A DNA stretch of 64,000 bases from an uncultured Eubacteriales bacterium (GTDB lineage Bacteria > Bacillota > Clostridia > Peptostreptococcales > Anaerovoracaceae). The stretch is taken from positions 5,089 through 69,088 of the forward strand of contig ONJG01000013.1 of the NCBI GenBank assembly GCA_900318105.1. The letters run 5' to 3'. A model generated the notes under the pieces. The model had not been told where the DNA came from. It did no database searches and was given only the letters and a program-made list of their open reading frames with translations. Shown in pieces: positions 12,478-59,267 of this stretch (positions are counted from its first letter, which is position 1; each line of letters begins with the position of its first letter). The position numbers were made by a program, and so were the translations under genes.

Positions 12478-13704
12478 CTATTTTTCCGTTTTAAGCTCCT
12501 CGAATTTCTCTCTTACCGAAGGAGCATTTTTGGTGAGTCTCTTTATGTTGACATTCTCAATTTTATTGTTAGCTGTATTGAGATGCTTCTCCGAAGTCAT
12601 CAGGTTTTCCTTAATCCTGTTCAGCGCGGCGATTGCATTGTCAATTCCCTTGATTGCATCTTCATATCTGTCAGTCGCAAGTCTGAAACTGTCTGCAAAG
12701 CTCTTTTTGAAAGTGTTCAGATTTTCCTCGAAATTGTTAAGCTCAAGCTCCTGATTCTGTACATATGCAAGCTTTTGCCTGTATTCGAGAGAATTCAGAG
12801 CGGCATTTCGAAGCAGCGAGATGATGGGTATAAAAAACTGCGGCCTTACGACGAACATCTTTGGATATCTGTATGAGACATCCACTATTCCGTTGTTATA
12901 CAGCTCATTATCGCTTTCAAGGAGTGAAACCAGCACGGCATATTCGCAGTTCTTTTCATTCCTGTCCTTATCGAGTTCCTTGAAGAAATCCTCGTTTTTA
13001 TGCTTGGTCCTGGTCGTATCCATTTCGTTTTTCATCTCAAACATAATGGATATAAATTCGGTGCCTCCGGCGGACTCCCTGAATATGAAGTCCCCTTTGC
13101 TGCCGCTGCTTGCGTCATTGTCCTTTTCGAATTCAGCATTTGGAAAAGCAGTCATTCTGATCTGATTGAACTGTGCCATGCAATGCTGCTCGAGGCTTTC
13201 TCCTATCATCTTGGTGGACTGTCTGGCTTTGAAATCCTTAAGCCTTTCGATTTCCTCGTCCCTCAGCTTTATCTCCCCTTTGTGCTTTTCGGCCAGGTTG
13301 TTTTCCCTGAGCTCACTTTCTTTCTTTTGCAGCTCAATATCGGACATCAGCTTTGTTATCTCGGTTCCTTTAATGGAAAGCTCTCTGTCCTTTTCCTGAA
13401 CTGCCTCGGAAACTGCCAGTTTCTTTTCAACATCTGCATTTTCGAGCAGAGCACGCAATCTTTCTATCTCGTTTTCTTTTTCTGCAATTTCCGAATTCTT
13501 TTTCGAAATCTCCTCACTATGGAGCTTATCCTGCTCCATCTTTGCGATTGTCAGATCGCTTTCATTCTTGCGGCTTAACTCCTCTTCTCTCCTCTCAAGT
13601 TCCTTATTGAACTCTTTGTCCCGGACCTGCTGAACAATCTGAGAGTATCCGGTCTCATCGACCTGAAATACTTTACCGCAATTCGGACATTTGATTTCCT
13701 GCAT
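12478..13704 (-). CDS. DUF2130-like protein: zinc ribbon, coiled coil and a putative PD-(D/E)xK nuclease-like C-terminus
   Basis: 408-aa ORF with an N-terminal CPNCGKVF zinc ribbon and a long E/K-rich coiled coil. GDFIFRE...ISIMFEMKNE resembles a D...ExK motif. Confidence 0.75.
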   Translation of the reverse strand: MQEIKCPNCGKVFQVDETGYSQIVQQVRDKEFNKELERREEELSRKNESDLTIAKMEQDKLHSEEISKKNSEIAEKENEIERLRALLENADVEKKLAVSEAVQEKDRELSIKGTEITKLMSDIELQKKESELRENNLAEKHKGEIKLRDEEIERLKDFKARQSTKMIGESLEQHCMAQFNQIRMTAFPNAEFEKDNDASSGSKGDFIFRESAGGTEFISIMFEMKNEMDTTRTKHKNEDFFKELDKDRNEKNCEYAVLVSLLESDNELYNNGIVDVSYRYPKMFVVRPQFFIPIISLLRNAALNSLEYRQKLAYVQNQELELNNFEENLNTFKKSFADSFRLATDRYEDAIKGIDNAIAALNRIKENLMTSEKHLNTANNKIENVNIKRLTKNAPSVREKFEELKTEK

Positions 13705-34435: not shown

Positions 34436-34481
34436 AATAGTTCTCCTTTTCAAACCCGCTATATTGTATCATATAATTGCG

Positions 34482-41908: not shown

Positions 41909-44632
41909 TTATTTTCTTTCTATTTCCACCATTTCGAAGCACTCAATCACATCATCGGGTTTGATATCGTTGTACTTCTCAATTCCGAGTCCGCATTCGT
42001 ATCCTGCGGCAACTTCCTTGACGTCATCCTTGAATCTTCTGAGCGAGGATATTACGCCCTCGTGGATAACTATGCCGTCACGTACGAGCCTGATCTGTGC
42101 GTTTCTCTTGACCTCTCCCTCTGTTACGTAGCATCCGGCCACGATACCGAGGTTCGGCACCTTGAATGTATCCCTGACCTCGGCTTTTCCGAGTACTTCC
42201 TCTTTGTATTCCGGATCGAGCATACCCTTCATGGCTGCCTCCACTTCATCGATGATGTCGTAGATTACCCTGTAAAGCCTGATCTCGACATCTGCGGCGG
42301 CTGCCTGGTTTGTAACGGCTGTTGTAGGTCTTACATTGAATCCGATAATGATGGCATTTGATGTCTCAGCCAGCATTACGTCTGATTCGTTGATTGTACC
42401 GACGCCTGAGTGAATTACATTGATCTTGACCTCAGGAGTCTCCAGCTTTTCAAGTGATGAGATGATTGCACCGACTGAGCCCTGTACGTCAGCCTTGATA
42501 ATGAGGTTGAGTTCCTTGGCCTCTCCCTCCTGAATCTGACTGAAGAGTTTGTCGAGAGTCATGCTGGCATTGCGCGCCATGACCTCTTCTCTCATCTTAT
42601 CTTTTCTGTTCTGGGCTATTTCCCTTGCTGTCTTGTCATCTCTTACCGCATTGAAGATATCTCCGGCTGCAGGAACATCTGCAAGTCCGAGAATCTCAAC
42701 TGCGGTGGCAGGACCGGCTTTTCTGATGGCCTTGCCTTTATCGTCGGTCATCACCCTGATCTTACCTGAGGATGTTCCGGCCACCACGCTCTGTCCTGTC
42801 TTAAGTGTTCCGTTGGATACAAGGAGCGTGGCGACGGGGCCTTTGGCCTTGTCGAGCCTGGCCTCGATAACCGTACCGCTGGCCAGTCTGTCCGGATTGG
42901 CCTTGAGCTCGAGCACATCTGCCTGAAGGAGTATCATCTCGAGAAGATCCGTGATGCCTTCGCCCTTCTTTGCAGATACGGGTACCGAGATAACCTCTCC
43001 ACCCCATTCCTCGACGAGCACTCCGTTATCCATGAGTTCCTGTTTGACTCTGTCGGGATTTGCACCCGGTTTATCCATCTTGTTGATGGCTACTATGATC
43101 GGAACTCCCGCAGCCTTGGCGTGGCTTATGGACTCGATTGTCTGAGGCATAACTCCGTCATCTGCTGCAACCACGAGTACTGCAATATCCGTAACCTGCG
43201 CACCTCTTGCACGCATGGTGGTGAATGCTTCGTGACCCGGAGTATCCAGGAATACGATTTTCTTTCCGTTTATCTCAACTTCGGATGCACCGATATGCTG
43301 GGTGATTCCGCCTGATTCTCCGGCGGTTACATTCGTATTTCTGATGGCATCGAGCAGAGATGTCTTTCCATGGTCGACGTGACCCATAACCGTGATGATA
43401 GGAGGTCTCGGCTGAAGTTCGCTTTCGGAATCCTCGTGCATATCGATTCCCTCTTCGACGATTTCGGGCTCTTCCTCTGTGACCACAATCTGAAGTCCGA
43501 GGTCTGCCGCGAGCATCTCAACCATATCCTTATCCAGTGACTGGTTGATGGTGGCCATAACTCCCATCTGCATCATCGACATGATTATCTTGGAAACACT
43601 GATCTCGGCCTGCTCCGAAAGTCCTGCTACCGTAATAGGCACGGTAACTGCGATTGTGCCCTCGGGGAGCAGTTCTTCGGGTTCGGGTTCTTCCACGACC
43701 TTTGTCTTATATTTCTTCTTATGACGCTCCTGTTTTTCAAGAGCTCTTTCATCATAAATGTCATTGCCCTGATTTCTGCGTCTTCCGCCCGGGCCGTCTT
43801 CTCTTCGGTCATTCCTGGACATTCTGTCCTTGTTATCGAAGAATTTCTTGCTTTTACCCTTGGATGGTCTGCTGCCGCCGCTCTGAGCTGCATCTCCGCT
43901 GCCATGGGCCTTTCTCTGCGCTCCGCCTTTTCCGTCATCGGAGCTCTCACCGGCTGTGGCTTTTTTCTTTCTCGTAGTTTTGGCACTTTCTGCGCTTGCA
44001 GCGAGTTTTTCCTTCTGGCGTTTTCTCTGTTCTTCTGCCTTCTTCTTTTCGGTCTCGGCATCGGATATTTTCTTGAAACGCATGGGTTTTCCGGGTGCGT
44101 TTACATAATCTTCAGGAGCTTCGGGGGTTTCCTCCTTTATTTCGGCTTTTTCCTCTTTTGCAGGTTTCTCTTCTTCTTTTGCTTTTTGGGATTTTTCTTC
44201 CTTCTCAGCCTTTGTTTCTTTAACTTCTTTATCTTTTTTTGCAGTCTTTTTATCTTCACCTGCATCCGAAATCTCCTCAGACGGTGCATCTGAGTCCTTT
44301 ACCGCTGCGGCCGTATCATCTTCGGGCTTTTCTTCCTCCTTGGGAGCGACCGGTTTTTTTGGAATAACGGGCTTTCCTACGGGCGCCTTGGCCACAGGCG
44401 TGGCTTTGGGCACAACAGGCACAGCCTTAATCTTGGGCTTGACGGTACCATCCGCGCCGGTGCCGGAGTTTCCTTTCATGAGATTAATGGTGCTCACAAG
44501 TCTTTCGGCATCCACATCCTCAATAGAGGATCTGGCTCCTCCGACCTCGATACCCATCTTGACTGCATAATCCTTGAGTTCCTGCAAACTTATGTCAAGT
44601 TCTTTGGTAAGCTCACTAACTTTTTTTGACAT
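41909..44632 (-). CDS. infB: translation initiation factor IF-2
   Basis: 907-aa ORF with a long K/E/A-rich N-terminal region and the GTPase motifs GHVDHGKTSLLD, DTPGH and NKMD. Confidence 0.97.
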   Translation of the reverse strand: MSKKVSELTKELDISLQELKDYAVKMGIEVGGARSSIEDVDAERLVSTINLMKGNSGTGADGTVKPKIKAVPVVPKATPVAKAPVGKPVIPKKPVAPKEEEKPEDDTAAAVKDSDAPSEEISDAGEDKKTAKKDKEVKETKAEKEEKSQKAKEEEKPAKEEKAEIKEETPEAPEDYVNAPGKPMRFKKISDAETEKKKAEEQRKRQKEKLAASAESAKTTRKKKATAGESSDDGKGGAQRKAHGSGDAAQSGGSRPSKGKSKKFFDNKDRMSRNDRREDGPGGRRRNQGNDIYDERALEKQERHKKKYKTKVVEEPEPEELLPEGTIAVTVPITVAGLSEQAEISVSKIIMSMMQMGVMATINQSLDKDMVEMLAADLGLQIVVTEEEPEIVEEGIDMHEDSESELQPRPPIITVMGHVDHGKTSLLDAIRNTNVTAGESGGITQHIGASEVEINGKKIVFLDTPGHEAFTTMRARGAQVTDIAVLVVAADDGVMPQTIESISHAKAAGVPIIVAINKMDKPGANPDRVKQELMDNGVLVEEWGGEVISVPVSAKKGEGITDLLEMILLQADVLELKANPDRLASGTVIEARLDKAKGPVATLLVSNGTLKTGQSVVAGTSSGKIRVMTDDKGKAIRKAGPATAVEILGLADVPAAGDIFNAVRDDKTAREIAQNRKDKMREEVMARNASMTLDKLFSQIQEGEAKELNLIIKADVQGSVGAIISSLEKLETPEVKINVIHSGVGTINESDVMLAETSNAIIIGFNVRPTTAVTNQAAAADVEIRLYRVIYDIIDEVEAAMKGMLDPEYKEEVLGKAEVRDTFKVPNLGIVAGCYVTEGEVKRNAQIRLVRDGIVIHEGVISSLRRFKDDVKEVAAGYECGLGIEKYNDIKPDDVIECFEMVEIERK

Positions 44633-44888
44633 TCAATTCCTCCCCCTGTCTGTCAAGAGCTATGTTTATAGCTGTTTCTATGCTGTCTGCGTCCACATTT
44701 GTTCTGCAGGCGCGGTTAAATGCTTTACGCTTAATCGCGTTTTCGATACATTCTTTTCTGCTGCAAAGGTAGTAACCTCTGCCTTCACTGTTTCCGTCTG
44801 TGTCTGCCGAGATGGTATCTCCCGACAAGGTAAAGCGCAGGAGTTCATCCTGTGGCTTTGACTCCCTGCAAGAGATGCATCTACGCAT
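44616..44888 (-). CDS. ylxR: YlxR/RnpM-family (DUF448) RNA-binding protein
   Basis: The sequence MRRCISCRESKPQDELLRF...GRGYYLC is typical of the family. I prefer the ATG at 44888. The ORF-track start at 44915 is a TTG lying 35 nt inside nusA. Confidence 0.85.
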   Translation of the reverse strand: MRRCISCRESKPQDELLRFTLSGDTISADTDGNSEGRGYYLCSRKECIENAIKRKAFNRACRTNVDADSIETAINIALDRQGEELNVKKS

Positions 44889-46059
44889 CGGTTTCGGACT
44901 CTGATGTCTCCTCAACTTCCTCTACCTCTTTTGCTTCTGTTTCTGGTTCTTCTGCCGGTTCTTCTGCAAGCGGCTCCTCGTATTCCATCTCATCTGCATC
45001 TTCGTATTCATCGAAGTCAAATCCCATCTCCTTGAGCTGGTCATTGCTCTTGATGTCGATCTTCCAGCCGCTGACCCTGGCTGCAAGCCTTACGTTCTGG
45101 CCCTCTCTTCCGATGGCAAGTGAAAGCTGCTGCTCGGGCACCACTGCCGTAGCGGACTTCTCATCCTCGTTGATGTATACACCTTCAACTATAGCCGGTT
45201 TGAGGACGTTGCTTATGAGAACAGCAGGATCCTCATCCCATACTATGATGTCGATTTTTTCTCCGAAGAGCTCGTCCGTGATGTTCTGAACTCTTGCTCC
45301 TCTGTTTCCGACGCATGCTCCCACGGGATCGACGTTCGGATCGTTGGAATAAACGGCTATCTTTGTGCGGGATCCTGCCTCCCTGGCAGTTCCCTTTATC
45401 TCTACAGTTCCGTCTGCGATTTCGGGTATCTCAAGTTCAAAGAGTCCTCTGACGAGTCCCGGATGCGATCTTGAGAGCAGCACCTGAGGTCCCTTGCTCT
45501 CCTTCTTTACATCCATGACATATACTTTGATTCTCTCTCCCGGCTTGAAGTTTTCGGACTTGACCTGCTCTGATGCAGGCACCCTGCCCTCTGTTCTTCC
45601 GAGTGAAATCAGCATGGTGCCGTTGTTGATCCTCTCGACCTTTCCTGTGACAATCTGGCCTTTCTTTTCGATAAATTCATTGTAGGAATTGGTTCTCTCG
45701 GCTTCTCTGTTCTTCTGAACGAATACCTGCTTTGCACCCTGGGCTGCGATTCTGTTGAAGTCCTTGGGGTCGATTTCGTATTCAACGATATCTCCGAGTT
45801 CATATCCGTCATAGATTTCCTTTGCATCTGCAAGCGAAATCTGTGTAAGATCGTCTTCCACTTCCTCAACAACTTCCATTCCCATGAAAACAGTAACATT
45901 ACCATTTTCCATATCCACGTCAACCCTGACGTTGGAAGCTCCGTAATTCTTCCTGTATGCATTCTCTATGGAGTCTTTGATCGCTCCGATAATCTCCTCC
46001 TCAGAGAGATTCTTTTCTTTCTTAAGATCTTCAAACGCTTCCAGAAAATCGTTGTTCAT
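44881..46059 (-). CDS. nusA: transcription termination/antitermination factor NusA
   Basis: 392-aa ORF with an NTD, an S1 domain (GQIVTGKVERINNGTMLISLG) and two KH domains. It ends in an acidic C-terminal tail. Confidence 0.96.
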   Translation of the reverse strand: MNNDFLEAFEDLKKEKNLSEEEIIGAIKDSIENAYRKNYGASNVRVDVDMENGNVTVFMGMEVVEEVEDDLTQISLADAKEIYDGYELGDIVEYEIDPKDFNRIAAQGAKQVFVQKNREAERTNSYNEFIEKKGQIVTGKVERINNGTMLISLGRTEGRVPASEQVKSENFKPGERIKVYVMDVKKESKGPQVLLSRSHPGLVRGLFELEIPEIADGTVEIKGTAREAGSRTKIAVYSNDPNVDPVGACVGNRGARVQNITDELFGEKIDIIVWDEDPAVLISNVLKPAIVEGVYINEDEKSATAVVPEQQLSLAIGREGQNVRLAARVSGWKIDIKSNDQLKEMGFDFDEYEDADEMEYEEPLAEEPAEEPETEAKEVEEVEETSESETDA

Positions 46060-46073
46060 TATGTCCTCCTTAG

Positions 46074-46550
46074 TTAGAAAACCACTGCCAAGTTTATCTT
46101 TGAAATCTTTTCGAACGGCACTTTCAGTTCTTCATCATCCGTTTTGATAATCACGAGATTATCGTCTTTACCTATAAGCGTGCCTTCGAAATTCTTGCTG
46201 CCGTTAATCTGTTCGTAAGTTTTTAGTTCAACCTGCCTTCCGGCAAATCTTATAAAGTCAGTCTCTTTGACAAGCTCCCTGTCAAGCCCGGGAGAACTCA
46301 CCTCGAGATTATAACTCCTGTCTATAATATCCGTTTCATCGAGCCTGTCTGAAAGATATCTGTTAAGCTCTTCGCACTCCTCGATGCTTACGTACTCTGT
46401 CGTGGCATCTGCGGGTTTATCCGGATATACTCTGAGCACCCAGTCAGGGCCTTCCTTTTTGTACTCTACCTTGTAGAGTTCGAGATTATGCTCCTTCAGG
46501 TAGTCAGTAAGCAGGAGAGATACCTCGCTGCATATGTCTTGCCTGGCCAT
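46074..46550 (-). CDS. rimP: ribosome maturation factor RimP
   Basis: 158-aa ORF directly upstream of nusA. It has the LEVSSPGLDRELV motif. Confidence 0.93.
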   Translation of the reverse strand: MARQDICSEVSLLLTDYLKEHNLELYKVEYKKEGPDWVLRVYPDKPADATTEYVSIEECEELNRYLSDRLDETDIIDRSYNLEVSSPGLDRELVKETDFIRFAGRQVELKTYEQINGSKNFEGTLIGKDDNLVIIKTDDEELKVPFEKISKINLAVVF

Positions 46551-48824: not shown

Positions 48825-48844
48825 ACGCGCATATATACGCGCAC

Positions 48845-48872
48845 AAAAAACTCCGGAGACATTGCTCCGAAG
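48845..48872 (-). terminator. rho-independent terminator after the metal ATPase gene
   Basis: The minus-strand RNA reads cuucggag caaugu cuccggag, followed by UUUUUU. Confidence 0.65.
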
Positions 48873-48926
48873 CGATTATAACACAATATCTAGAACATTT
48901 GGCGCAAAGAGCCACAATATTTTCCG

Positions 48927-50903
48927 TTAATTCTGCACTTTTAGCTGTTCATTATCCTTTATGAGCATCCTCATGGAATTGAGAATACATATGACTGCAA
49001 CACCAACATCCGCAAATACGGCAACCCACATATTGGCTATGCCTGCAGCACCGAGTATGAGGCAGGCGAACTTCACAAAGAGCGCAAATACTATATTCAT
49101 CCTGGAAATGCCTATTGTCCTGGATGCAATTTTCATTACCTTTGGAATTCTGGTCAGATTATCATCCATAATGACCACGTCCGCTGCTTCTATCGCGGCA
49201 TCGGAGCCAAGAGATCCCATGGCTATTCCGACATCGGCGATGGACAGAACCGGAGCATCGTTTATTCCGTCTCCTATAAATGCGAGTTTGCCCTTTCCTT
49301 TTGTCGATGCCTTTATCACAGAGAGCATCTCCTCAGCAACATTTACTTTGTCCTGTGGCAGCAGCTCCGCTCTGTAGTCTGTGATGCCAAGTTCTGATGC
49401 AACGGATGAGGCCACGCTCTCAGAGTCTCCTGTGAGCATCACGACGTGCTTTACTCCTGCTTTGAGCATGGCTGAGATAGCTTCTTTTGCATTGGCTTTG
49501 GGCTTATCCGATACGACAATCGTGCCAATGTATTTGCCGTTCCTGGCCACATAGCAATGCGTGCCCGCTGCATCGGCCAAAGTATCCTCTGTCTCTATGC
49601 CCTGCTCTTCCAGGTAGGATTTTTTACCCACGATAATCTCATCCCTGCCTACTATGGCCTTGACTCCGCCTCCTGCCTGAACCTGCGTATCCTTAATTTT
49701 TGAAGGCGGATATGGTTTTTTGCATGCTTCGGTTATGGCAGATGCTATAGGATGTGTGGAGCCAGACTCTGCAGCCGCAGCGTACCTTATGAGCTCGTCA
49801 GTGTCCATTTCCCCGGCAGCTTCCATGTAGCTTACACTGAATTTACCCTCTGTGAGAGTTCCTGTCTTGTCGGTGACTATTGTGTCGAGCATGGACATCT
49901 GCTCAAGGAAATTTGAGCCCTTTACAAGGACGCCTTCCTTTGATGCAGCTCCTATCCCTCCGAAAAATGCAAGCGGAACCGATATCACAAGGGCGCACGG
50001 GCATGAGATTACAAGGAATGTGCATGCTCTCAGCAGCCATTTTGAGAATTCTGCCGTAAAGTTTCCGGATATGAGCGGCGGTATAAATGCGAGAGCCACA
50101 GCAGCAATTACGACAATTGGTGTGTAATATTTTGCAAATCTCGTGATAAAGCTCTCGGTTTCGGATTTCCTCGAAGCTGCATTTTCGACAAGCTCGAGTA
50201 TCTGCATTACGGTTGAGTCGTCATACTCTTTGACAGCCTGAACCTTGAGGAGCGTGTCACCGTTTATGCATCCCGATATCACGCTTTCTCCTTCTTTCAC
50301 CTCTCTCGGAACGGATTCTCCGGTCAGGGCCGCAGTGTTTATAAGCCCGTGCCCTTCGACAACAAGAGCATCCGTCGGTATCCTCTCACCGGGTTTTACG
50401 ATGAGGATGTCGCCGACTTCTATATCATCGGGTTCTATTACTTCAGTGCTGCCGTCCTCGTTTTCCCTGTTCGCGAATTCCGGTGCTATGTCCATAAGAT
50501 CCGAAATTGCACCTCTGGATTTACCGACAGCGTAGCTCTGAAAGAACTCACCCACCTGATAGAAGAGCATAACGGCGACGGCTTCCTCAAACTCTCCGCA
50601 GCCGAATGCTCCGACCGTGGCAAGTGTCATTAGAAAACTCTCATCAAAAAGCTGTTTGTTCTTAATCCCGATAAAGCACTTGCGAATGACATCGTGACCC
50701 ACGATGAAATACGGAACAAGATATAAAAGCTTGATTGCAATCCCTGCATAAAGAGCAGGCGAAGCTGGCGCGCTCCCGGGTCCCTCCGCTGTTTCTAAAG
50801 GCGGGAGTAAGAGGTGCTCCGCTGCCAGAAGCAGCGCAAACATCACCAGCGCAATTATGATTCTTTTTAATTCTATTTTTTGTTTTTCTGTTAATTGATT
50901 CAT
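48927..50903 (-). CDS. cadA: heavy-metal (Cd/Zn/Co-type) translocating P1B-type ATPase
   Basis: 658-aa ORF with SCPCALVIS in a TM helix, the phosphorylation site DKTGTLT, GDGINDAP and HP motifs. It has no fused N-terminal HMA domain. Confidence 0.9.
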   Translation of the reverse strand: MNQLTEKQKIELKRIIIALVMFALLLAAEHLLLPPLETAEGPGSAPASPALYAGIAIKLLYLVPYFIVGHDVIRKCFIGIKNKQLFDESFLMTLATVGAFGCGEFEEAVAVMLFYQVGEFFQSYAVGKSRGAISDLMDIAPEFANRENEDGSTEVIEPDDIEVGDILIVKPGERIPTDALVVEGHGLINTAALTGESVPREVKEGESVISGCINGDTLLKVQAVKEYDDSTVMQILELVENAASRKSETESFITRFAKYYTPIVVIAAVALAFIPPLISGNFTAEFSKWLLRACTFLVISCPCALVISVPLAFFGGIGAASKEGVLVKGSNFLEQMSMLDTIVTDKTGTLTEGKFSVSYMEAAGEMDTDELIRYAAAAESGSTHPIASAITEACKKPYPPSKIKDTQVQAGGGVKAIVGRDEIIVGKKSYLEEQGIETEDTLADAAGTHCYVARNGKYIGTIVVSDKPKANAKEAISAMLKAGVKHVVMLTGDSESVASSVASELGITDYRAELLPQDKVNVAEEMLSVIKASTKGKGKLAFIGDGINDAPVLSIADVGIAMGSLGSDAAIEAADVVIMDDNLTRIPKVMKIASRTIGISRMNIVFALFVKFACLILGAAGIANMWVAVFADVGVAVICILNSMRMLIKDNEQLKVQN

Positions 50904-50907
50904 ATAA

Positions 50908-51126
50908 TTAAAGCACTACGCGGCAATCCGGCTCAACTTTTGCGATGCACTTCACCGCTTCCTGAACGATTTCTTCAAATCTTGCATCATCTGCATCAAT
51001 CATCATCTTTTGTGTCATAAAGCTTACCGATGCATCGTTTACTCCATCAATATTCTTTATGGCCTCTTCCATCTTTGCAGCGCAGTTTGCACAATCGAGA
51101 TCCTGCAGTTTAAACTTCTTTTTCAT
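50908..51126 (-). CDS. stand-alone heavy-metal-associated (HMA) domain protein
   Basis: The sequence MKKKFKLQDLDCANCAAKMEEAI carries a CxxC metal site. The ATG at 51126 has AAGGAGG upstream. It is in a different frame from the ATPase, 4 nt upstream of it. Confidence 0.8.
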   Translation of the reverse strand: MKKKFKLQDLDCANCAAKMEEAIKNIDGVNDASVSFMTQKMMIDADDARFEEIVQEAVKCIAKVEPDCRVVL

Positions 51127-51139
51127 TGTAGCTTCCTCC

Positions 51140-51454
51140 TTATTCCTCAATATGTTCTTTGCCCATGGCGATAATCGTCTTTACGTGTTCGTCATCAAGC
51201 GAATAATAGATGGCTTTGCCGTCTCTTCTGCTCTTTACGAGTTTGCCGGCCTTTAGCGCCCTGAGCTGATGCGATACGGCAGACTGATTCATCTCAATAT
51301 CTTCACAGATTTCAGTCACGTTATTTTCTCCGTCAAAGAGATCATAGAGAATCTTGATGCGTGTAGAGTCTGCAAACATCTTGAAGAGATCCGCCAGATC
51401 AAGCAAATCCTCCTCGCTCATTCCTTTCAGTTTGTAATCATCGCTTGATTTCAT
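51140..51454 (-). CDS. ArsR/SmtB-family metal-sensing repressor (alpha5-site type)
   Basis: 104-aa ORF with the HTH segment STRIKILYDL...QSAVSHQLRALKAGKLV. The C-terminal DDEHVKTIIAMGKEHIEE fits a D-x-H-x10-H-x2-E site. Confidence 0.88.
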   Translation of the reverse strand: MKSSDDYKLKGMSEEDLLDLADLFKMFADSTRIKILYDLFDGENNVTEICEDIEMNQSAVSHQLRALKAGKLVKSRRDGKAIYYSLDDEHVKTIIAMGKEHIEE

Positions 51455-51575: not shown

Positions 51576-54500
51576 CTATGCGATGTCGAATATTGTCATC
51601 TGCGCAGATTCGGGCAGTCCCGCAAAAAGGCCGTGACGCTTCAGGTCTTCAATATTGGTCGCGGACAGCCTGGTGCGTGACCTTACATCATCAAGCGTGT
51701 TGAATACCTTTTCCGAATATGCTTTGGTCAGGGATTCGGCGGCCGTATCACCTATTCCGCTTATGGCATTGAACGGAAGCATTACCTTTCCATCCACGAC
51801 CGAGAATTTGCACGCCTCGGCAACGCCGAGTACAGGTTCTGCAAACTCAATGCCCCTCGAAAGCGCTTCGTACATTACCTCGTATACCGTAAGCTGTTCT
51901 TTTTCCTTGGCTGTTGCGGTATTTCCGAGCCTTTGAAGCTCATCCATCCTGCGCTCCACATCGGCCATGCTCTTTCCGGCTATTTCAGCATCGAAGTTAT
52001 CCACCTTGGATGTAAACCAGGCCGCATAAAAGGCCTCCGGGTAATATACCTTAAACCAGGCCATGCGGATTGACATCATTACATAGGCCGCAGCGTGGGC
52101 ACGCGGGAACATGTACTTCAAGGTTTCGCACGACCAGATATACCAGTCCGGAACTCCGTGGTCCTTCATCAGAGCCAGCTGCTCATCGCTGAGCTTTTTA
52201 TTCTTACGGACTATCTCCATTATCTTGAAGGCATCCGCGTTCTCAAGGCCCTTGCTGATAAGGAATGTCATGATATCGTCACGACAGGATATTACCTCGC
52301 TTATGGTCGCGGTTTTGTTTCTGATCAAATCCTGCGCGTTGTTGGTCCATACATCGGTGCCGTGCGAGAATCCCGACATCTTGATAAGAGCCTCAACCGT
52401 ATCGGGTTTAATATCATCCAGCATCTGCCTGGTGAAATTGGTTCCGAATTCCGGAATCGCATAGGTTCCGTGCGTAAACCTGTAATCCTCGTTTTTTATG
52501 TGAAGTTCATCGAGCGATGTAAATATGCTTAATGTCTTAGGGTCATCCAGCGGAATGCTCATTGGTTCCACGCCCGTCATCACCTGCAGATGCCTTATCA
52601 TCTGAGGAACATCATGCCCCAGTATGTCGAGTTTCAGCAGGTTTGATTCTATCTTGTGATAATCAAAATGGGTCGTTATTACATCGGTGTCCCTTTTGTT
52701 AGCCGGCTTTTGAATCGGGCAGAACTCGAATATCTCATGGTCGTCCGGAACAACGATAATTCCGCCCGGATGCTGTCCCGTCGTTCTCTTTACTCCGGTG
52801 CAGCCTTTGACCAGGTAGTCAATGTCATATTTGCTGGCTTTGATGTGATTGTCCTCTACGTAGTGTTTAACGTAGCCGAAAGCGGTTTTGTCTGCGATTG
52901 TCGCTACCGTGCCGGCCTTGAATACATTCTTGTCTCCGAAAATCTCACCTACATATCTGTGAGCAATCGGCTGGTATTCGCCTGCAAAGTTAAGGTCGAT
53001 ATCCGGTTCTTTGTTTCCTGTAAATCCGAGGAAGGTGGCAAACGGTATATTAAGGCCTTCCTTTTTCATTCTGGCGCCGCACTTCGGACAGCTCTTTTCG
53101 GGCATGTCGTAGCCTGTATCGTAGTTCAGTCCGAGCTCCGTCTGAGGTATATATGTCTTGCACTCGGGGCATATGTAATGAGGCGGAAGAGGATTTACCT
53201 CTGTGATGCCCGCCATGGTGGCTGCAAACGAAGAACCCACAGATCCCCTGGATCCTACCAGATATCCGTCCGACAGCGACTTTTCAACGAGCATTTTGGC
53301 GGCTATGTACATCACGGCATAGCCGTTTGAAATAATCGAGTTAAGCTCCACCTCGAGCCTCTCCTCCACATCTTTGGGAAGAGGATCTCCGTATATGGAC
53401 CTCGCCTTTTCATAGCAGCTCTCTCTTAGCTTTGTCTCAGAGCCCTCGATCTTGGGCGGGAACTTTCCGTCGGGAATAGGTTTAACATCCTCTATCACAG
53501 CGGCTATCCTGTTCGTATTTGTAATTACTATCTCTTCGGCCCTGTCACCGAGATATGAGAATTCTTCCATCATCTCATCGGTCGTTCTGAGATAGAGAGA
53601 GTCTGACGGAGTGTCCCTGAATCCTATGCCCTGCATTATGATGTTTCTGTAGATGGAGGATTCCTGATTGGGATAGTGAGCGTCCGTTGTTGCTACCGTG
53701 AGCTTGCCCAGTTTGTCTGCAATTTCAACAACCTTAAGGTTGTTTGCAATAAGTTCGTTATCGTCAGTCGCCCTTCCTTCTTCGATCAGGAAGCGGTTAT
53801 TTCCGAGAGGCTGTATCTCAAGATAATCGTAAAAGCTCGCTATTTCAATGAGTTCATCATCGCTCTTTCCCTCTATCACAGCCTGATAGAACTCTCCCGC
53901 CTCGCAGGCGGATCCTATGATGAGACCCTCTCTGTGAGCCTCGAGCACCGAGCGCGGAATCCTCGGTCTTTTGTAGAAATAGTCTATATGCGACAGGCTG
54001 ACAAGTTTATATATATTCTTGAGCCCTGTCTGGTTTTTGGCCAGGATGATTATGTGATACGTCCTGTTCTTCTTTATATCTATGCTGCCGTCATCAAGAA
54101 TGGCATTTTCATCAGGATAGAGGTAGCCTTCCAGGCCGTATATAACCTTGATGTCCCTGCCGCGCCCGGCCTGACGTGCGGCTTCTGCAGCCGCATCGGG
54201 AAATGCCTGCACAACTCCGTGGTCCGTGATTGCAACAGCAGGCTGGCCCCAGTGTGCAGCTGTCCTCACTATATCCGCAGCCTCGTTAAAGCCGTCATTG
54301 TCGCTCATTTTGGTGTGGCAGTGAAGCTCCACCCTCCTGCCGTTCTGATACTTATCCTCCCTGATGGTCTTTTCTGTTTTCTTGAGAGAATTGACCATCA
54401 TCACGTTTTCATGCTCATAAGTATCGTATTCAATGGAGCCTCTGGCTTTTATCATGTCTCCTTCTCCGAGGTTCTCATCGATTTCACTCATTTTGTTCTG

Positions 54501-55076
54501 AGATACAAAGCTCTTGATGCAGAGCGTCTTAGCCTTGTTTGCAACAAAAATACTGACCAGAACACGGCCGCTCTTGATGGGGATGGAATCCATTTTGAAT
54601 ATCTCTCCCTCTATTACGGCCTTGTCACTTGTACCGACAAAGCCTTCGAGTTCGCCATAATCCGCCGCTTCTCCGCTGAAATCGGCACCGAGTATGACGA
54701 GTTCTCCTGCGGAATTTGTAAATGCGGGTTTATCGGCATCGCGTTTTCTGTATGGTCTTCCTCCGTTGTAGCCTCCGTTGCTTCCGTTTTGCTCATGCTC
54801 TGCATTATCAAAGACTTTTATCCCCGTGTAGGCATAGTTAAAGCTGATGCGCTTTGCGGCTCCTATGCGCGCCATAATGCGCTCTTTCATGATATTCTCT
54901 GTTCTTTTTGGCATCACAAAATTGAGCTTGGTGTCTACTCTTATCACCAGGCCCGATTTGTCCGCGGACTCCTTCACCGAGATATTGGTTATCTCGATGT
55001 CGATGTCCTGCTCGGATTTGCCGCTTGCCTCTGTAAGCTCGGCAATTGTGAGAATCTCAGCAGGTATTTTTATCAC
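51576..55076 (-). CDS. polC: PolC-type DNA polymerase III alpha subunit lacking the 3'-5' exonuclease domain
   Basis: 1166-aa ORF with a GTG start overlapping the ispG stop (GTGA). It has an OB domain, PHP motifs (VELHCHTKMS, ITDHGVVQAFP), the PolC zinc module (CPECK...CPKCG) and palm motifs (PDIDLNF, GVKRTTGQHPGG). Only about 25 residues lie where the DnaQ-like domain normally sits. Confidence 0.9.
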   Translation of the reverse strand: MIKIPAEILTIAELTEASGKSEQDIDIEITNISVKESADKSGLVIRVDTKLNFVMPKRTENIMKERIMARIGAAKRISFNYAYTGIKVFDNAEHEQNGSNGGYNGGRPYRKRDADKPAFTNSAGELVILGADFSGEAADYGELEGFVGTSDKAVIEGEIFKMDSIPIKSGRVLVSIFVANKAKTLCIKSFVSQNKMSEIDENLGEGDMIKARGSIEYDTYEHENVMMVNSLKKTEKTIREDKYQNGRRVELHCHTKMSDNDGFNEAADIVRTAAHWGQPAVAITDHGVVQAFPDAAAEAARQAGRGRDIKVIYGLEGYLYPDENAILDDGSIDIKKNRTYHIIILAKNQTGLKNIYKLVSLSHIDYFYKRPRIPRSVLEAHREGLIIGSACEAGEFYQAVIEGKSDDELIEIASFYDYLEIQPLGNNRFLIEEGRATDDNELIANNLKVVEIADKLGKLTVATTDAHYPNQESSIYRNIIMQGIGFRDTPSDSLYLRTTDEMMEEFSYLGDRAEEIVITNTNRIAAVIEDVKPIPDGKFPPKIEGSETKLRESCYEKARSIYGDPLPKDVEERLEVELNSIISNGYAVMYIAAKMLVEKSLSDGYLVGSRGSVGSSFAATMAGITEVNPLPPHYICPECKTYIPQTELGLNYDTGYDMPEKSCPKCGARMKKEGLNIPFATFLGFTGNKEPDIDLNFAGEYQPIAHRYVGEIFGDKNVFKAGTVATIADKTAFGYVKHYVEDNHIKASKYDIDYLVKGCTGVKRTTGQHPGGIIVVPDDHEIFEFCPIQKPANKRDTDVITTHFDYHKIESNLLKLDILGHDVPQMIRHLQVMTGVEPMSIPLDDPKTLSIFTSLDELHIKNEDYRFTHGTYAIPEFGTNFTRQMLDDIKPDTVEALIKMSGFSHGTDVWTNNAQDLIRNKTATISEVISCRDDIMTFLISKGLENADAFKIMEIVRKNKKLSDEQLALMKDHGVPDWYIWSCETLKYMFPRAHAAAYVMMSIRMAWFKVYYPEAFYAAWFTSKVDNFDAEIAGKSMADVERRMDELQRLGNTATAKEKEQLTVYEVMYEALSRGIEFAEPVLGVAEACKFSVVDGKVMLPFNAISGIGDTAAESLTKAYSEKVFNTLDDVRSRTRLSATNIEDLKRHGLFAGLPESAQMTIFDIA

Positions 55077-56158
55077 TTTGAATTATCGGCCTCCACAAGC
55101 TCTATCAGTCTGTCAACAAGTGCATCCTCGCTCACTTTCTCAATTATCTCACCGTGCGAGAACACCAGCCCTTCGCCGCGTCCTCCGGCGATTCCGTAGT
55201 CGGCTTCCCTGCTCTCACCGGGGCCGTTTACCGCACATCCCATAACTGCTATCTTAAGCGGTCTGAGTCCTCTGTCGGCCCTTGCGGCAGCTATAGGCAC
55301 CAGTCTGTCTTCGGCTTCATTTGCCAGCCCGATCAGATCTATCTCGGTCCTTCCGCAGGTCGGGCATGAAACGACCTCAATGGCCTTTTCTCTCAGGCCG
55401 ACGGTCTCAAGTATGCGTCTTGCAAAGAGCACTTCCTTAACCGGATCGTCTGTGAGTGATACTCTCATGGTATCTCCTATGCCGGCAAGAAGGAGTGAAC
55501 CTATTCCGACGGCGGATTTGAGTTCTCCGTTCCTGGGCGTTCCCGACTCGGTAATTCCTATATGAATGGGCTTGTCAGTGAGCTCTCTCAGCCTCATGTG
55601 TGCATCGTAATTCATCTTTACATCGGATGATTTAATGGATACCACGAGCTGATCGTAGCCGAGCTCCTCGATTATGCCCAGCATCCCGGCGCCGCTTTCG
55701 GCGAGCCCGTCAGCAGTCACGCCGCCGTATTTCTCAAGAATATCCTTTTGAAGAGAGCCTGAGTTTACTCCGACCCTGATGGGAATATTCCTCTCCCTGG
55801 CTTTTTCTACGACCGCCTTTACTCTGTCCATGCTGCCGATATTACCGGGATTGATTCTTATCTTGTCTGCCCCGTTTTCAATCGCGGCTATGGCAAGTCT
55901 GTAATCAAAGTGGATATCCGCAACAAGAGGAACCTTTACCTGCTTTTTTGCGCGCCCCAGTGACTCTGCAGCCTCCATATCCGGAATGGCAGCCCTCACT
56001 ATCTCGCAGCCGGCATCCGAAAGTTCCTTTATCTGCCTTACCAGGGCATCGGTATCCCTTGTGTCCACATTGGTCATCGACTGAATGGATACTGGAGCGC
56101 CTCCTCCGATGAGTACGCCTCCACAATTAACTTGTACTGTATTTCTTATTTTGCTCAT
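55073..56158 (-). CDS. ispG: 4-hydroxy-3-methylbut-2-enyl diphosphate synthase
   Basis: 361-aa ORF with a TIM-barrel domain and a 4Fe-4S domain (SCPTCGRT...GCAVNGPGE). Confidence 0.96.
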   Translation of the reverse strand: MSKIRNTVQVNCGGVLIGGGAPVSIQSMTNVDTRDTDALVRQIKELSDAGCEIVRAAIPDMEAAESLGRAKKQVKVPLVADIHFDYRLAIAAIENGADKIRINPGNIGSMDRVKAVVEKARERNIPIRVGVNSGSLQKDILEKYGGVTADGLAESGAGMLGIIEELGYDQLVVSIKSSDVKMNYDAHMRLRELTDKPIHIGITESGTPRNGELKSAVGIGSLLLAGIGDTMRVSLTDDPVKEVLFARRILETVGLREKAIEVVSCPTCGRTEIDLIGLANEAEDRLVPIAAARADRGLRPLKIAVMGCAVNGPGESREADYGIAGGRGEGLVFSHGEIIEKVSEDALVDRLIELVEADNSK

Positions 56159-56161
56159 TTC

Positions 56162-57169
56162 CTATCCGAAAATATTCTTTATGTCGTTAAATGTTATAAG
56201 CACGGCAAATGCAATCAGCAGCATCATCCCCGCCACCGTTGCTTTGTATTCCATATCATCTGTTATCCTGCCGCCGCTGATGACCTTGAGGAAGATAAAG
56301 AAAATCTTTCCTCCGTCGAGTCCCGGTATCGGCAGCAGATTGAAGAATGCGAGGTTGAGACTTACCAGGACAAGCAGCATCAGATAGCTCGTTGCCCCAT
56401 ATGACGTTGTCTGATCCACTACCCTGACCAGACCGACGGGTCCTGCCATGTCATCTGCATTTACACCGTTTGTAATCATGCTTTTAATTGCGCCGGCAAA
56501 CGCAGTGCATACTTCCCATGTGAGCCTGACTCCGCCCGTGATGCTCTTTCCGAAGCTCTTCTTGTAAGCAGACACAATGCCGACGACATAGCGCTGCTCA
56601 TCATCAAGATACTCGGGAGTAATATCGGCTTCCATCGCCTCTCCTCCGCGCTTTATCACAAAATGCATGGTAGAGCCGTCCTTGTTTGCATCAATGGCGG
56701 AAGTTACATCCTCCCACTCCCTTGTTGCACGGCCGTCTATCTCGAGAATTGTGTCTCCGGCTCTGAGTCCGGCTGCCTCTGCAGGCGATCCCGGGCTTAC
56801 GCTTTCGAGAGTGTTACTCGGAAAACCCGTGATTCCCACCACTATAATCGATACGAGAATGGCGATGAGAATATTCATCGTAACTCCCGCAAGCAATATC
56901 GCTATCTTCTGCGGATTGCTTTTGCTGCTGTAGGATGTGGGACTGTCGACCGTCTCTTCTTCTCCTTCCATTGCACAAAAACCGCCAAGCGGAAGAAGCC
57001 TGACAGAATACTGAGTATCGCCTTTCTTTCTCTGGAACAGAAGCGGTCCCATTCCCACCGAAAACTCGTTTACTTTAACGCCGCATAACTTGGCAACCAC
57101 CATATGTCCCCACTCGTGCGGTATTACCAGCACAAGCAGCATCAATACAAACAAAACTGCCGTTAACAC
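56162..57169 (-). CDS. rseP: RIP metalloprotease RseP
   Basis: 335-aa ORF with HEWGHMVVA, one PDZ domain and the NLLPIPGLDGG motif. Confidence 0.9.
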   Translation of the reverse strand: MLTAVLFVLMLLVLVIPHEWGHMVVAKLCGVKVNEFSVGMGPLLFQRKKGDTQYSVRLLPLGGFCAMEGEEETVDSPTSYSSKSNPQKIAILLAGVTMNILIAILVSIIVVGITGFPSNTLESVSPGSPAEAAGLRAGDTILEIDGRATREWEDVTSAIDANKDGSTMHFVIKRGGEAMEADITPEYLDDEQRYVVGIVSAYKKSFGKSITGGVRLTWEVCTAFAGAIKSMITNGVNADDMAGPVGLVRVVDQTTSYGATSYLMLLVLVSLNLAFFNLLPIPGLDGGKIFFIFLKVISGGRITDDMEYKATVAGMMLLIAFAVLITFNDIKNIFG

Positions 57170-57204
57170 TTAATATATAATTCCTTTCTGTTACTTTACT
57201 GAAT

Positions 57205-58437
57205 TCACTCGGTTTTGAGCATCTTTCTTGCCATTATCCTGGATTCGTTATCTATGGCAAGTATTTCCTCAACCGTTCCGGGTCTGCTGAAACCGGATTT
57301 GTCCATCACCCGTTCTATTGTCTCCGGTATGTCCGTAAAACCTATATTTCCTGCGAGGAACATCGCGACGAGTTCCTCGTTTGCGCCGTTCATGACGACC
57401 GGCGCACTGCCGCCTTCCCTGATGGCGGCATACGCGATGTCGAGGCACCTGAAGGTTTTCCTGTCTGCTTTTTCAAATGTGAGATTTGCTCCCTTGGTGA
57501 AAAAGTCCAGGCTCCCGTCAGACCCCCTGTCCTCATCAAGTCCGCTGAATTCCGGAATCAAACTGAGTCTGTCCGGATAATTAAGCGCAAGTCCGATTGG
57601 AATCTTCATGTCGGGAATTCCCATCTGAGCAATTACAGAACCGTCCATGAACTCCACCATGGAATGCACAATGCTCTCAGGATGCACGTGTACGTCTATC
57701 TTATCCGCAGGGATGTCGAATAACCACCTGGCCTCGATTACCTCCAGTCCTTTGTTCATCATCGTTGCGGAATCTATCGTAATCTTTGATCCCATGGACC
57801 AGTTCGGGTGATTGAGAGCCTGCTCAATCGTTACGTCCCTCATCTCATCGAGTGTCCTTCCTCTGAAAGGTCCGCCCGATGCGGTCAGAAGAATTCTTCG
57901 GATCGCTCTGTCCGGTCCGTCACCTGCGTCATCTTTGTATGCCCTTGCGCACGCACTGCCGCCGTTTCCTTCAAGGCACTGGAATATCGCGCTGTGCTCG
58001 CTGTCCACCGGTATAAGTTTTACACCTTTCTCCCTGCAGAGCTCTGTGACTATCTCACCTCCGGCGACAAGGGTTTCCTTATTGGCAAGCGCGATGTCTC
58101 TCCCGTGTGAAATTGCCTCATATGTAGGAGCAAGCCCGCTTATGCCCATAAGCGCATTCAGAACAATATCGCAGTCCATGCCTGCGATTTCCACAAGTCC
58201 TGCATCCCCATAGTGCACATCGATCTCTGGAAACTCACTCTTCACTCTCTTTGCATCATCGGAATTACCGACGCAGACCGACTCCGGTGCGAATTCCCTT
58301 ATCTGGGCAATCAAATCGTCCACCCGGCTGCGGCAGCTGAGTCCGCAAGCCGAGAATTTGTCCCTGTTATTCCTGATTATCTCGAGCGCCTGAGTCCCTA
58401 TGGAACCGGTGCTTCCAAGTATAAGTACTTTCTTCAT
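57205..58437 (-). CDS. dxr: 1-deoxy-D-xylulose 5-phosphate reductoisomerase
   Basis: The start MKKVLILGSTGSIGTQ (58437) is preferred because the ORF-track start would overlap cdsA. DSEHSAIFQC and LTASGGPF motifs are present. Confidence 0.95.
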   Translation of the reverse strand: MKKVLILGSTGSIGTQALEIIRNNRDKFSACGLSCRSRVDDLIAQIREFAPESVCVGNSDDAKRVKSEFPEIDVHYGDAGLVEIAGMDCDIVLNALMGISGLAPTYEAISHGRDIALANKETLVAGGEIVTELCREKGVKLIPVDSEHSAIFQCLEGNGGSACARAYKDDAGDGPDRAIRRILLTASGGPFRGRTLDEMRDVTIEQALNHPNWSMGSKITIDSATMMNKGLEVIEARWLFDIPADKIDVHVHPESIVHSMVEFMDGSVIAQMGIPDMKIPIGLALNYPDRLSLIPEFSGLDEDRGSDGSLDFFTKGANLTFEKADRKTFRCLDIAYAAIREGGSAPVVMNGANEELVAMFLAGNIGFTDIPETIERVMDKSGFSRPGTVEEILAIDNESRIMARKMLKTE

Positions 58438-59267
58438 ACGTTCAGAATCTGTGTCAGTCCGCATATCTCATAATAGATTACTGGTGCGACGAATATGACG
58501 CTGTCGAACCTGTCCATGATGCCGCCATGGCCCGGTATGAGGTTTCCGTAGTCCTTGATGCCCATCTTGCGTTTGAAAGCAGACGCGGTCAGGTCTCCCG
58601 CCATCCCGGCAGCTCCTCCCAGCAGCCCGAGCATAAGGCAGATGAGAGCGGCATTATCAAGTCCGCTGTTTCTCATAAAAAAGTAACCGAAGAGCCATGA
58701 GAAAAGCGAGCTTCCGATAAGCCCTCCGACTGCACCCTCTATTGTTTTCTTGGGGCTGAGGTTAGGCGCCATCTTATGTTTTCCGAGGAAATATCCCGTG
58801 AAATATGCAAATATATCCGAACCGAAAGCTGCAATGACAACTATCCAAATGAATAGTCTGTATTCAGTCTGATCAATCAGCACCATATGGTATGCAAAGA
58901 ACGGGATATATACCAGCGTAGTGACCGTTGCAATTGCATCATAAGGTCCTCTTTCGTTAATCTTCCATCCGTAAATGAGACCTGCGGCAACCACCATAAA
59001 CAGCCAGATGCAGATCATCATCATGTTTTCGTAAAAACGCGGTACGGCAGAGCTCGCAGATGGTATGGCCGTTGAAAAGAGGAGCAATGTGAAAATATAG
59101 CAGATTGTCTTGCTCGGTTTTACATCGAGATTGTTCCATCCGTTGCAGAATTCATGAACTCCCATGAGAGAAATGAGAAGGGCTGCTGCCCACAGGGCAA
59201 CTCCTCCGAAGTAGAGCACCACCAGAAGCGGCGCCATTAAAAGTCCCGATAAAATTCTGGTTTTCAT
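58434..59267 (-). CDS. cdsA: phosphatidate cytidylyltransferase
   Basis: 277-aa membrane ORF with the C-terminal signature SAFKRKMGIKDYGNLIPGHGGIMDRFDS. Confidence 0.93.
   Translation of the reverse strand: MKTRILSGLLMAPLLVVLYFGGVALWAAALLISLMGVHEFCNGWNNLDVKPSKTICYIFTLLLFSTAIPSASSAVPRFYENMMMICIWLFMVVAAGLIYGWKINERGPYDAIATVTTLVYIPFFAYHMVLIDQTEYRLFIWIVVIAAFGSDIFAYFTGYFLGKHKMAPNLSPKKTIEGAVGGLIGSSLFSWLFGYFFMRNSGLDNAALICLMLGLLGGAAGMAGDLTASAFKRKMGIKDYGNLIPGHGGIMDRFDSVIFVAPVIYYEICGLTQILNV

Follow-up and report, generated by a model that had tools for sequence, protein, structure and literature searches.

The N-terminal domain (NTD) of a typical PolC-type DNA polymerase III alpha subunit consists of two tau-domain-V-like subdomains. 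Canonical PolC (e.g., that of B. subtilis or of E. faecium, PDB 9QPC) has the second of these subdomains as well as a ~210-aa DEDDh exonuclease domain between PHP strands 3 and 4. A variant without the exonuclease ("exo-less") was described by Timinskas et al. in 2014, whose survey assigned 6% of PolCs to it, from hosts in Clostridia and Negativicutes, and reported that in 12 surveyed genomes it was the only PolC and was always paired with DnaE1 (PMC3919608). In the available part of that survey, the variant (e.g., Acidaminococcus fermentans YP_003399045) has the domain order NTD-OB-PHP-Pol3-HhH and a complete PHP motif (HHDHEHCDH), with two Acidaminococcus exo-less PolCs, among the Table S1 entries listed, keeping nine of nine PHP residues (PMC3919608). 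A similar domain composition has also been engineered in the laboratory, in Gka-PolC-deltaN-deltaExo from G. kaustophilus (3F2B) and Sau-PolC-deltaN-deltaExo, the latter a fast polymerase with a kpol of 330 per second (PMC3656037). In our literature search, no biochemical study of any natural exo-less PolC was found.

Replicases can also proofread through the PHP domain, as T. thermophilus Pol III alpha does, and to our knowledge PHP exonuclease activity has so far been demonstrated for no PolC. In M. tuberculosis, the PHP exonuclease of DnaE1 is the replicative proofreader, according to the available part of that report (PMC5636811).

Here, we analysed a polC gene carried on a 64,000-nucleotide stretch of DNA (the window), whose nearest genomes by this gene are Anaerovoracaceae/Mogibacterium, i.e., Clostridia, and whose host is most likely a rumen or gut member of the Anaerovoracaceae, Mogibacterium-like Clostridia. 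An earlier note on this DNA, made from the sequence alone, had pointed to a PolC without its proofreading domain and had rated its novelty too high: the observation holds up, but the variant is already in the 2014 survey (PMC3919608).

Identity and architecture of the gene

The polC ORF (51576..55076, minus strand, as are all features given below) encodes 1166 aa from a GTG start, with a 4-nt overlap with the ispG stop, and this N-terminus is taken as real because homologues also open with MIKIP.... The curated equivalog cut-offs of both NCBIfam PolC models were exceeded (NF001688, 1385.5 bits vs a cut-off of 873; TIGR01405, 1289.2 bits vs 1043), each alignment being split into two stretches that skip the exonuclease positions of the profile, and Pfam recognized PHP, DNA_pol3_alpha, finger, and HHH_6 domains. 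The AlphaFold model (mean pLDDT 85.5) had 3f2b as its best PDB match (TM 0.92, 46% identity, 1020 columns). The reading frame is intact, very strong purifying selection acts on it (dN/dS = 0.03 against relative L001), and the gene is almost certainly a functional exo-less orthologue of polC.

The remaining architecture is NTD1-OB-PHP-Pol3-HhH followed by a clamp motif. A pre-OB segment and OB domain (residues 114-236; 54369..54737) align from residue 143 onward with the 3f2b OB domain, with beta-barrel strands modelled at residues 153-234. The PHP domain (Pfam 250-416) falls into an N-terminal part (residues 248-316; 54129..54335) and a C-terminal part (residues 341-530; 53487..54056), between which lies the junction described below. 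The Pol3 core, with palm, thumb, and fingers (residues 531-1085; 51822..53486; Pfam DNA_pol3_alpha and finger), holds the catalytic aspartates D692 and D694, invariant in 120/120 homologues, and a Zn module whose four cysteines (C636, C639, C663, and C666) are invariant in a 53-sequence alignment. It is followed by a tandem helix-hairpin-helix (residues 1090-1155; 51612..51809; Pfam HHH_6) and a C-terminal beta-clamp-binding motif, QMTIF (residues 1159-1163; 51588..51602; consensus AQxSIFDL), in which Q1159 is invariant among aligned homologues and which corresponds in form and position to the QIELF and QLSLF motifs of PolCs in the available part of Table S1 of Timinskas et al. (PMC3919608). 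The PolC-type identity proposed in the earlier note is borne out by the two profile scores and by the presence of the OB domain, of the palm motifs that it had named (PDIDLNF and GVKRTTGQHPGG), and of all four Zn-module cysteines. Gene and locus are orthologous to those of canonical PolC, with which the protein shares OB, PHP, Zn module, palm, fingers, and HhH, while lacking both the DEDDh domain and the second NTD subdomain.

At the position where exo-containing PolCs have about 200-250 residues (with a DnaQ-type exonuclease of ~210 aa), this protein has only a 24-aa junction (GYLYPDENAILDDGSIDIKKNRTY, residues 317-340; 54057..54128), flanked directly by the PHP ligands E316 and H341; its coordinates are those proposed earlier, where it had been estimated at ~25 residues. 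The junction sequence is conserved, with a length of 23-24 aa in all 120 homologues, is modelled with pLDDT >=90, and resembles the two linkers with which the consensus of the exo inserts begins and ends (GYLVDD... and ...KKKARPY). A cryptic or diverged exonuclease domain was also considered and is ruled out: the RNase_T family (PF00929), for which the earlier note had suggested a scan, was absent from the protein by Pfam even at E<=1, and a custom HMM built from 107 PolC exonuclease inserts, which detected E. coli DnaQ as positive control at 3.5e-36, had zero matches in this PolC and its 120 homologues. The absence claimed from the sequence therefore holds, and the DnaQ-type proofreading domain has been cleanly lost from an otherwise intact PolC. 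One supporting statement was literally wrong, namely that no D-x-E or H-x4-D occurs anywhere in the protein; the former occurs seven times and the latter twice, and these strings are chance occurrences, with no exonuclease domain at profile level.

The N-terminal region is reduced as well. Residues 1-84 (54825..55076) form a compact alpha/beta fold (pLDDT ~80) corresponding to NTD subdomain 1, and hhalign placed residues 27-81 onto positions 28-80 of a long-NTD profile (E 9e-5, with a probability of only 59%); the N-terminal 146 aa had no significant match among PDB sequences. In place of subdomain 2 is a Gly/Asn-rich, disordered linker (residues 85-113; 54738..54824; pLDDT <50), and it is here that ~90 residues are missing in a pairwise alignment with the 1254-aa Emergencia-type homologue P0119. 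The shortening, put at ~75 aa from the sequence alone, thus amounts to ~90 aa relative to Emergencia-type relatives; only NTD subdomain 1 is retained, and subdomain 2 has also been lost in the Mogibacterium-like subclade.

In domain order, PHP motif, C-terminal clamp motif (QxxLF type), and length (about 1150-1250 aa), this PolC is like the exo-less variant of Timinskas et al., at least as the variant appears in the available part of that survey, and its host likewise belongs to one of the two classes, Clostridia and Negativicutes, in which the variant is paired with DnaE1. Unlike the surveyed examples, it comes from the Anaerovoracaceae lineage, and its subclade has lost NTD subdomain 2 in addition. 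With Gka-PolC-deltaN-deltaExo (3F2B), it shares the same domain composition minus Exo (TM 0.92), and phmmer aligned the two in a single unbroken stretch. The Gka and Sau constructs were made by deletion in the laboratory, have an artificial linker, and lack the entire NTD, whereas this PolC keeps NTD subdomain 1 and has a conserved linker of natural origin that folds with confidence in the model; it is the natural counterpart of those catalytically competent constructs. They differ further in the PHP motif, which in G. kaustophilus is incomplete because an N stands at the position equivalent to D465 (...GNVHY vs ...TDAHY here).

Recurrence of the junction and conservation of the locus

One concern, raised when the gene was first noted, was that ~0.6 kb might be missing from the assembly at the junction; a related reading is that the gene is a decaying paralogue of a full-length polC. 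A tandem exo-less paralogue is indeed known in another lineage (P0250 in L082, where it adjoins a full-length, exo-containing PolC and has a degenerate PHP site), but nothing else favors such an explanation. The 23-24-aa junction was found in 120 homologue clusters drawn from assemblies of ENA, NCBI, JGI, and Logan. It also recurs in 80 Anaerovoracaceae species genomes, some of them isolate chromosomes; these genomes include M. pumilum ATCC 700696 (a finished chromosome), M. timidum, Emergencia timonensis, and Ihubacter. Recurrence in so many independent protein clusters and species genomes excludes an assembly deletion, and, together with the dN/dS of 0.03, refutes a pseudogene; further, the frame is intact, the locus is orthologous, and the PHP site is intact, unlike that of P0250. 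We regard the chance of an artefact or decaying paralogue as negligible.

The locus itself is conserved, and the ispG/rseP...polC...rimP-nusA neighborhood recognized in the earlier note was recovered by Pfam and in relatives. Upstream of polC lie ispG, rseP, dxr, and cdsA (55073..59267; Pfam GcpE, Peptidase_M50 with PDZ, DXP reductoisomerase, and CTP_transf_1), and downstream rimP, nusA, ylxR, and infB (41909..46550; Pfam RimP and NusA). The order cdsA-dxr-rseP-ispG-polC was kept in 15 of 16 relatives checked, the exception (L009) having no detected dxr, and by tblastn rimP-nusA was found downstream wherever the fetched locus of a relative extends far enough. In cultured Mogibacterium, rimP directly follows polC, while in the window four extra genes separate the two (ArsR, HMA, P-type ATPase, and PBP1 by Pfam). 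An Rfam scan of the window gave zero matches at gathering thresholds.

Loss of the exonuclease domain was counted on a neighbor-joining (NJ) tree with nodes below 70% bootstrap collapsed, giving a conservative count of at least ~7 losses. The uncollapsed NJ tree had 16 state changes, an overestimate, since its deep nodes are weak and P0121 and P0122 carry the query-type linker motif. These counts suggest several independent exo losses among Clostridia-type PolCs, with linkers of 11-38 aa.

The PHP metal site and candidate proofreaders

All nine PHP ligands (H252, H254, D261, H286, and E316 in the N-terminal part; H341, C391, D465, and H467 in the C-terminal part) are intact, which answers a question about metal-residue integrity left by the earlier note, and they are invariant in 120/120 homologues, within a fold predicted with pLDDT >=90. 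By comparison, the PHP motif is degenerate in many PolCs of other lineages. Among representatives at 50% identity, 22 of 23 exo-less PolCs have an intact site, compared with 70 of 112 that contain the exonuclease, the single exo-less exception being the tandem paralogue P0250. This association of exonuclease loss with an intact PHP site may only mirror phylogeny, as most clostridial PolCs keep the site with or without the exonuclease. Alternatively, completeness in all exo-less representatives but one tandem paralogue would suggest that the DnaQ insert is made superfluous by an ancestral PHP proofreader in PolC+DnaE1 bacteria. M. tuberculosis DnaE1 and T. thermophilus Pol III alpha likewise combine a complete nine-residue PHP site with no cis DnaQ-type domain; these are DnaE1-type enzymes, not PolC, and the likeness is one of inferred mechanism only. 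As indirect support for PHP exonuclease activity in PolC, a substitution at a PHP cysteine ligand of C. thermocellum PolC (C669Y) gives a ~30-fold mutator (bioRxiv 10.1101/2021.07.30.454558), and C391 aligns with the G. kaustophilus PHP cysteine that the same preprint equates with C. thermocellum C669/C670. We lean slightly toward the PHP domain as the proofreader of this PolC. Of the options that the earlier note had left open (the PHP domain, a DnaQ-like protein in trans, or a second full-length polC elsewhere in the genome, which may still exist), the intact PHP site and the searches described next narrow the choice.

Proofreading might instead be supplied in trans, E. coli style, by a separately encoded DnaQ-like (epsilon-type) exonuclease, with the PHP site kept for some other reason, for example a structural one. 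DnaQ homologues encoded on their own are common, averaging >3 per bacterial proteome in a 2026 polymerase survey whose data set, in the available part of the paper, includes M. diversum (PMC12926913). Around polC, however, no candidate appeared: no DEDDh domain was detected by the PolC-exo HMM at E<=1 in 11,993 ORFs (1.5 Mb) from the window and the polC loci of 80 relatives, neither the window nor the region within 10 kb of polC in those relatives holds a DnaQ-like gene or another C-family polymerase, and thirty further ORFs of the window contain no RNase_T and no DnaE by Pfam. A DnaQ gene beside polC is likewise rejected, the ORFs between polC and rimP being the four named above. The invariance of the nine PHP ligands also fits a selected catalytic site, and we consider a trans-acting exonuclease unlikely.

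A different division of labor, raised as speculation by Timinskas et al., would make DnaE1 the principal high-fidelity replicase and leave exo-less PolC with a reduced or specialized role, in which loss of its proofreader is tolerated (PMC3919608). That survey credits clostridial DnaE1 with every property expected of a replicase acting on its own, and confines exo-less PolC to PolC+DnaE1 lineages (PMC3919608), and the count of at least ~7 losses suggests that the exonuclease domain is dispensable in a PolC+DnaE1 background. Against a reduced role stand the polC dN/dS of 0.03, the retention of the clamp motif and of every catalytic residue, and the conserved locus. Moreover, in C. thermocellum, which has both PolC and DnaE1, the PHP-site mutation in PolC raises the genome-wide mutation rate ~30-fold, which implies that PolC synthesizes much of the DNA there. 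We judge this division of labor to be improbable, slightly more so than a proofreader in trans.

The preferred reading is of an orthologous, functional polC from which the exonuclease was excised, with PHP proofreading in cis and DnaE1 as partner, and taken as a whole we consider it reasonably probable. In such a history, the DnaQ-type domain would have been excised between the third and fourth PHP strands in an ancestor of the family, the former inward and outward linker strands would persist as the 24-residue hairpin, and the Mogibacterium-like subclade would subsequently have dropped the second N-terminal subdomain. Proofreading in the 3'-5' direction would then be provided in cis by the PHP metal centre with its full set of nine residues, by comparison with M. 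tuberculosis DnaE1 and T. thermophilus alpha, and PolC would partner a DnaE1 whose gene lies outside this locus, an arrangement shared by all Clostridia surveyed.

Meaning for clostridial replication

The importance of the finding is modest. For annotation, it is a reminder that a clostridial PolC of ~1150 aa is not a truncated or misassembled gene. The stronger proposal, that the Anaerovoracaceae PolC is a natural minimal PolC, devoid of Exo and of NTD subdomain 2, whose PHP trinuclear centre is the sole replicative proofreader, is one we put forward tentatively, at somewhat less than even confidence; if true, it would give the first demonstration of PHP proofreading in a PolC-type replicase. 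The family offers a clean natural test case, with cultured isolates (M. pumilum, M. timidum, and Emergencia timonensis), a PolC that matches the deltaExo constructs of structural and kinetic work, and a fully conserved PHP site. Questions that it could help to address are whether a PolC is able to proofread by means of PHP, and what has repeatedly made the DnaQ insert dispensable in PolC+DnaE1 bacteria.

An intact PolC from which the exonuclease domain is missing

The query polC ORF (51576..55076, minus strand) encodes 1166 aa and begins with GTG, overlapping the ispG stop codon just upstream by 4 nt. Its identification as PolC in an earlier note, made from the sequence alone, was borne out by NCBIfam scores far exceeding both PolC equivalog cut-offs (NF001688, 1385.5 bits against 873; TIGR01405, 1289.2 bits against 1043). 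Both matches were split into two stretches that skipped the exonuclease positions of the profiles, and the Pfam domains present were PHP, DNA_pol3_alpha, the finger domain, and HHH_6. RNase_T (PF00929), the DnaQ-type exonuclease normally inserted in the PHP domain, was absent from the Pfam scan even at E ≤ 1, and a PolC-exo profile built from the inserts of 107 exonuclease-containing PolCs gave zero matches in the query and 120 homologues, with E. coli DnaQ found at 3.5e-36 as positive control. The exonuclease absence proposed earlier therefore stands, though the literal claim that D-x-E and H-x4-D motifs occur nowhere in the protein does not (7 and 2 chance occurrences, respectively).

The junction left behind spans residues 317-340 (nt 54057-54128, exactly where the earlier note had placed it) and is flanked by the PHP ligands E316 and H341, a position at which exonuclease-containing PolCs hold about 200-250 residues. 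In all of the best 120 protein clusters from ENA, NCBI, JGI, and Logan (55-100% identity to the query, all 1125-1254 aa, none with PF00929), it is 23-24 residues long with the conserved sequence YLYPDEDA..DG.IDIKKNRTYH. Since this sequence is akin to both termini of the consensus for exonuclease inserts (start, GYLVDDKEKIV...; end, ...KKKARPY), the globular exonuclease was cleanly removed, with its entry and exit strands retained. In a search of PDB sequences, residues 143-1163 formed a single unbroken alignment to the PolC construct crystallised from G. kaustophilus, itself with the exonuclease domain deleted, and full-length E. faecium PolC aligned in two stretches with the exonuclease region between them. 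[quoted passage not shown] The same holds for the palm aspartates D692 and D694 in all 120 and, in the 53-sequence alignment, for the four cysteines of the zinc module and for Q1159 in QMTIF, the clamp motif at the C-terminus. Upstream of the OB domain, the model retains only one compact subdomain (residues 1-84) and a disordered Gly/Asn-rich linker (residues 85-113). Homologues likewise start with MIKIP..., which excludes a misassigned start codon as the cause of the short N-terminus, and the shortening recognised from the sequence amounts to ~90 residues relative to Emergencia-type PolCs (1254 aa). The retained part maps to the first of the two N-terminal subdomains by hhalign (E 9e-5, probability only 59%). 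Because the Emergencia-type proteins are likewise exo-less yet longer N-terminally, exonuclease loss is the older, family-wide event and loss of the second N-terminal subdomain a later one, specific to the Mogibacterium-like subclade.

Conservation and gene context

Scanning one genome per species yielded 80 loci, none of which matched the PolC-exo profile. Represented among them are uncultured Anaerovoracaceae from rumen and gut (closest, RUG13350, 92%), Mogibacterium pumilum ATCC 700696 (chromosome), M. timidum, M. diversum, M. kristiansenii, Emergencia timonensis, Ihubacter, Eubacterium pyruvativorans, and others. Between the query polC and its closest relative, dN/dS was 0.03, and the gene order cdsA-dxr-rseP-ispG-polC-...-rimP-nusA-ylxR-infB is common to the query locus and the relatives checked, in agreement with the canonical neighbourhood described earlier. 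Together, the shared junction, the exo-less species loci, the dN/dS value, and synteny rule out an artefact or pseudogene, and we conclude that the query gene is orthologous to canonical polC rather than an additional copy.

Directly after polC lies rimP in cultured Mogibacterium; in the window, genes for an ArsR regulator, an HMA metal-binding protein, a P-type ATPase, and a class A PBP (PBP1) are inserted between the two (46644-51454, minus strand). Close rumen relatives also carry this four-gene block, plus extra DNA, and cultured Mogibacterium species are without it; the gap between polC and rimP looks like a site of variable insertion.

Elsewhere in the window, a 646-aa ORF flanked by ileS and the gene for PNPase (32513-34453, minus strand) matched no Pfam family at E ≤ 1e-4, and a 408-aa protein with the function-unknown domain DUF2130 (12478-13704, minus strand) is encoded with the gap-pgk-tpi glycolytic cluster on one side and an HhH-GPD gene of the endonuclease III type on the other. 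T-box leaders are common upstream of aminoacyl-tRNA synthetase genes in Firmicutes; no Rfam family reached its gathering score on either strand of the 64-kb window, including upstream of ileS and pheST.

Recurrent loss of the exonuclease insert

Among the best 150 matches of an HMMER search run exhaustively against 1.84 billion representatives, about 23 were clusters lacking the exonuclease; their linkers measure 11-61 aa and differ in sequence. A bootstrapped NJ tree of the shared PolC core placed the query in an all-exo-less group (98% support) and strongly supported several sister pairs of exo-less and exo-containing proteins (e.g., P0131/P0132, 99%; P0176/P0135, 98%). With weak nodes collapsed to soft polytomies, at least seven state changes are required, which, as far as this tree can be read, indicates that the insert was lost repeatedly. 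Four representatives (P0130, P0139, P0199, and P0229) have shortened inserts, with 61-173 aa between the PHP ligands versus ~210, and may carry partly eroded exonuclease domains between the full and exo-less forms.

A complete PHP motif was found in 22/23 exo-less versus 70/112 exo-containing representatives (Fisher p = 0.001, uncorrected for phylogeny). The lone exo-less exception, P0250 (1178 aa), has a degenerate motif (HRSLENSDQ) and would be left without any proofreader in cis. It lies directly downstream of a full-length 1400-aa exo-containing PolC (pair at 5702-13537 of L082, the unrelated metagenomic contig ena:ERZ27319752:k141_497749, with IS200/IS605-type TnpB genes nearby) and is thus a tandem paralogue, the reverse of the query's situation. 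Anaerovoracaceae-type exo-less polC genes (59-64% identity to the query) also occur on five contigs (L018, L019, L021, L057, and L063) filed as Oscillospiraceae, Sphaerochaetaceae, Acutalibacteraceae, Flexilinea, and Bacteroidaceae 'cleanbin' genomes, records that are probably mis-binned or mislabelled.

Proposed proofreading without a DnaQ domain

Exo-less PolCs as a kind are already documented, and their novelty here is low. In the survey of Timinskas et al. (2014, PMC3919608), the Exo insertion was missing from 6% of PolCs, all from Clostridia and Negativicutes except one extra Thermotogae copy, and Table S1 includes two Acidaminococcus examples (1191 and 1210 aa) that have PHP 9/9 and carry QIELF at the C-terminus; a 2026 survey mapped PHP and DnaQ proofreaders, with mostly three active ones in Clostridia (PMC12926913). 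To this kind, the Anaerovoracaceae lineage contributes one more member, and its extra N-terminal truncation a minor variation.

The query PolC is intact, under selection, syntenic, and without a DnaQ domain, which supports the overall interpretation first drawn from the sequence. Given its nine invariant ligands and the precedent of M. tuberculosis DnaE1, which proofreads through its PHP domain (PMC5636811), we infer that the PHP metal centre would proofread in cis. Proofreading by a trans-acting DnaQ is unlikely, and neither the PolC-exo profile nor Pfam scans found such a gene in the window or within 10 kb of polC in the 80 relatives. A second, full-length polC may exist elsewhere in the genome. 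Table S2 of the 2014 study lists 12 genomes with NTD-OB-PHP-Pol3-HhH as the only PolC (PMC3919608). Every genome with an exo-less PolC in that study pairs it with DnaE1, and its authors raised the speculative idea of DnaE1 as the principal replicase of these organisms (PMC3919608), leaving PolC a reduced role, which we regard as quite improbable here. An engineered S. aureus deltaN-deltaExo PolC is a fast polymerase (PMC3656037), so exonuclease removal is compatible with catalysis. Returning to cis proofreading by the PHP centre, a well-conserved natural deltaExo PolC in culturable species could decide whether PolC proofreads via PHP.
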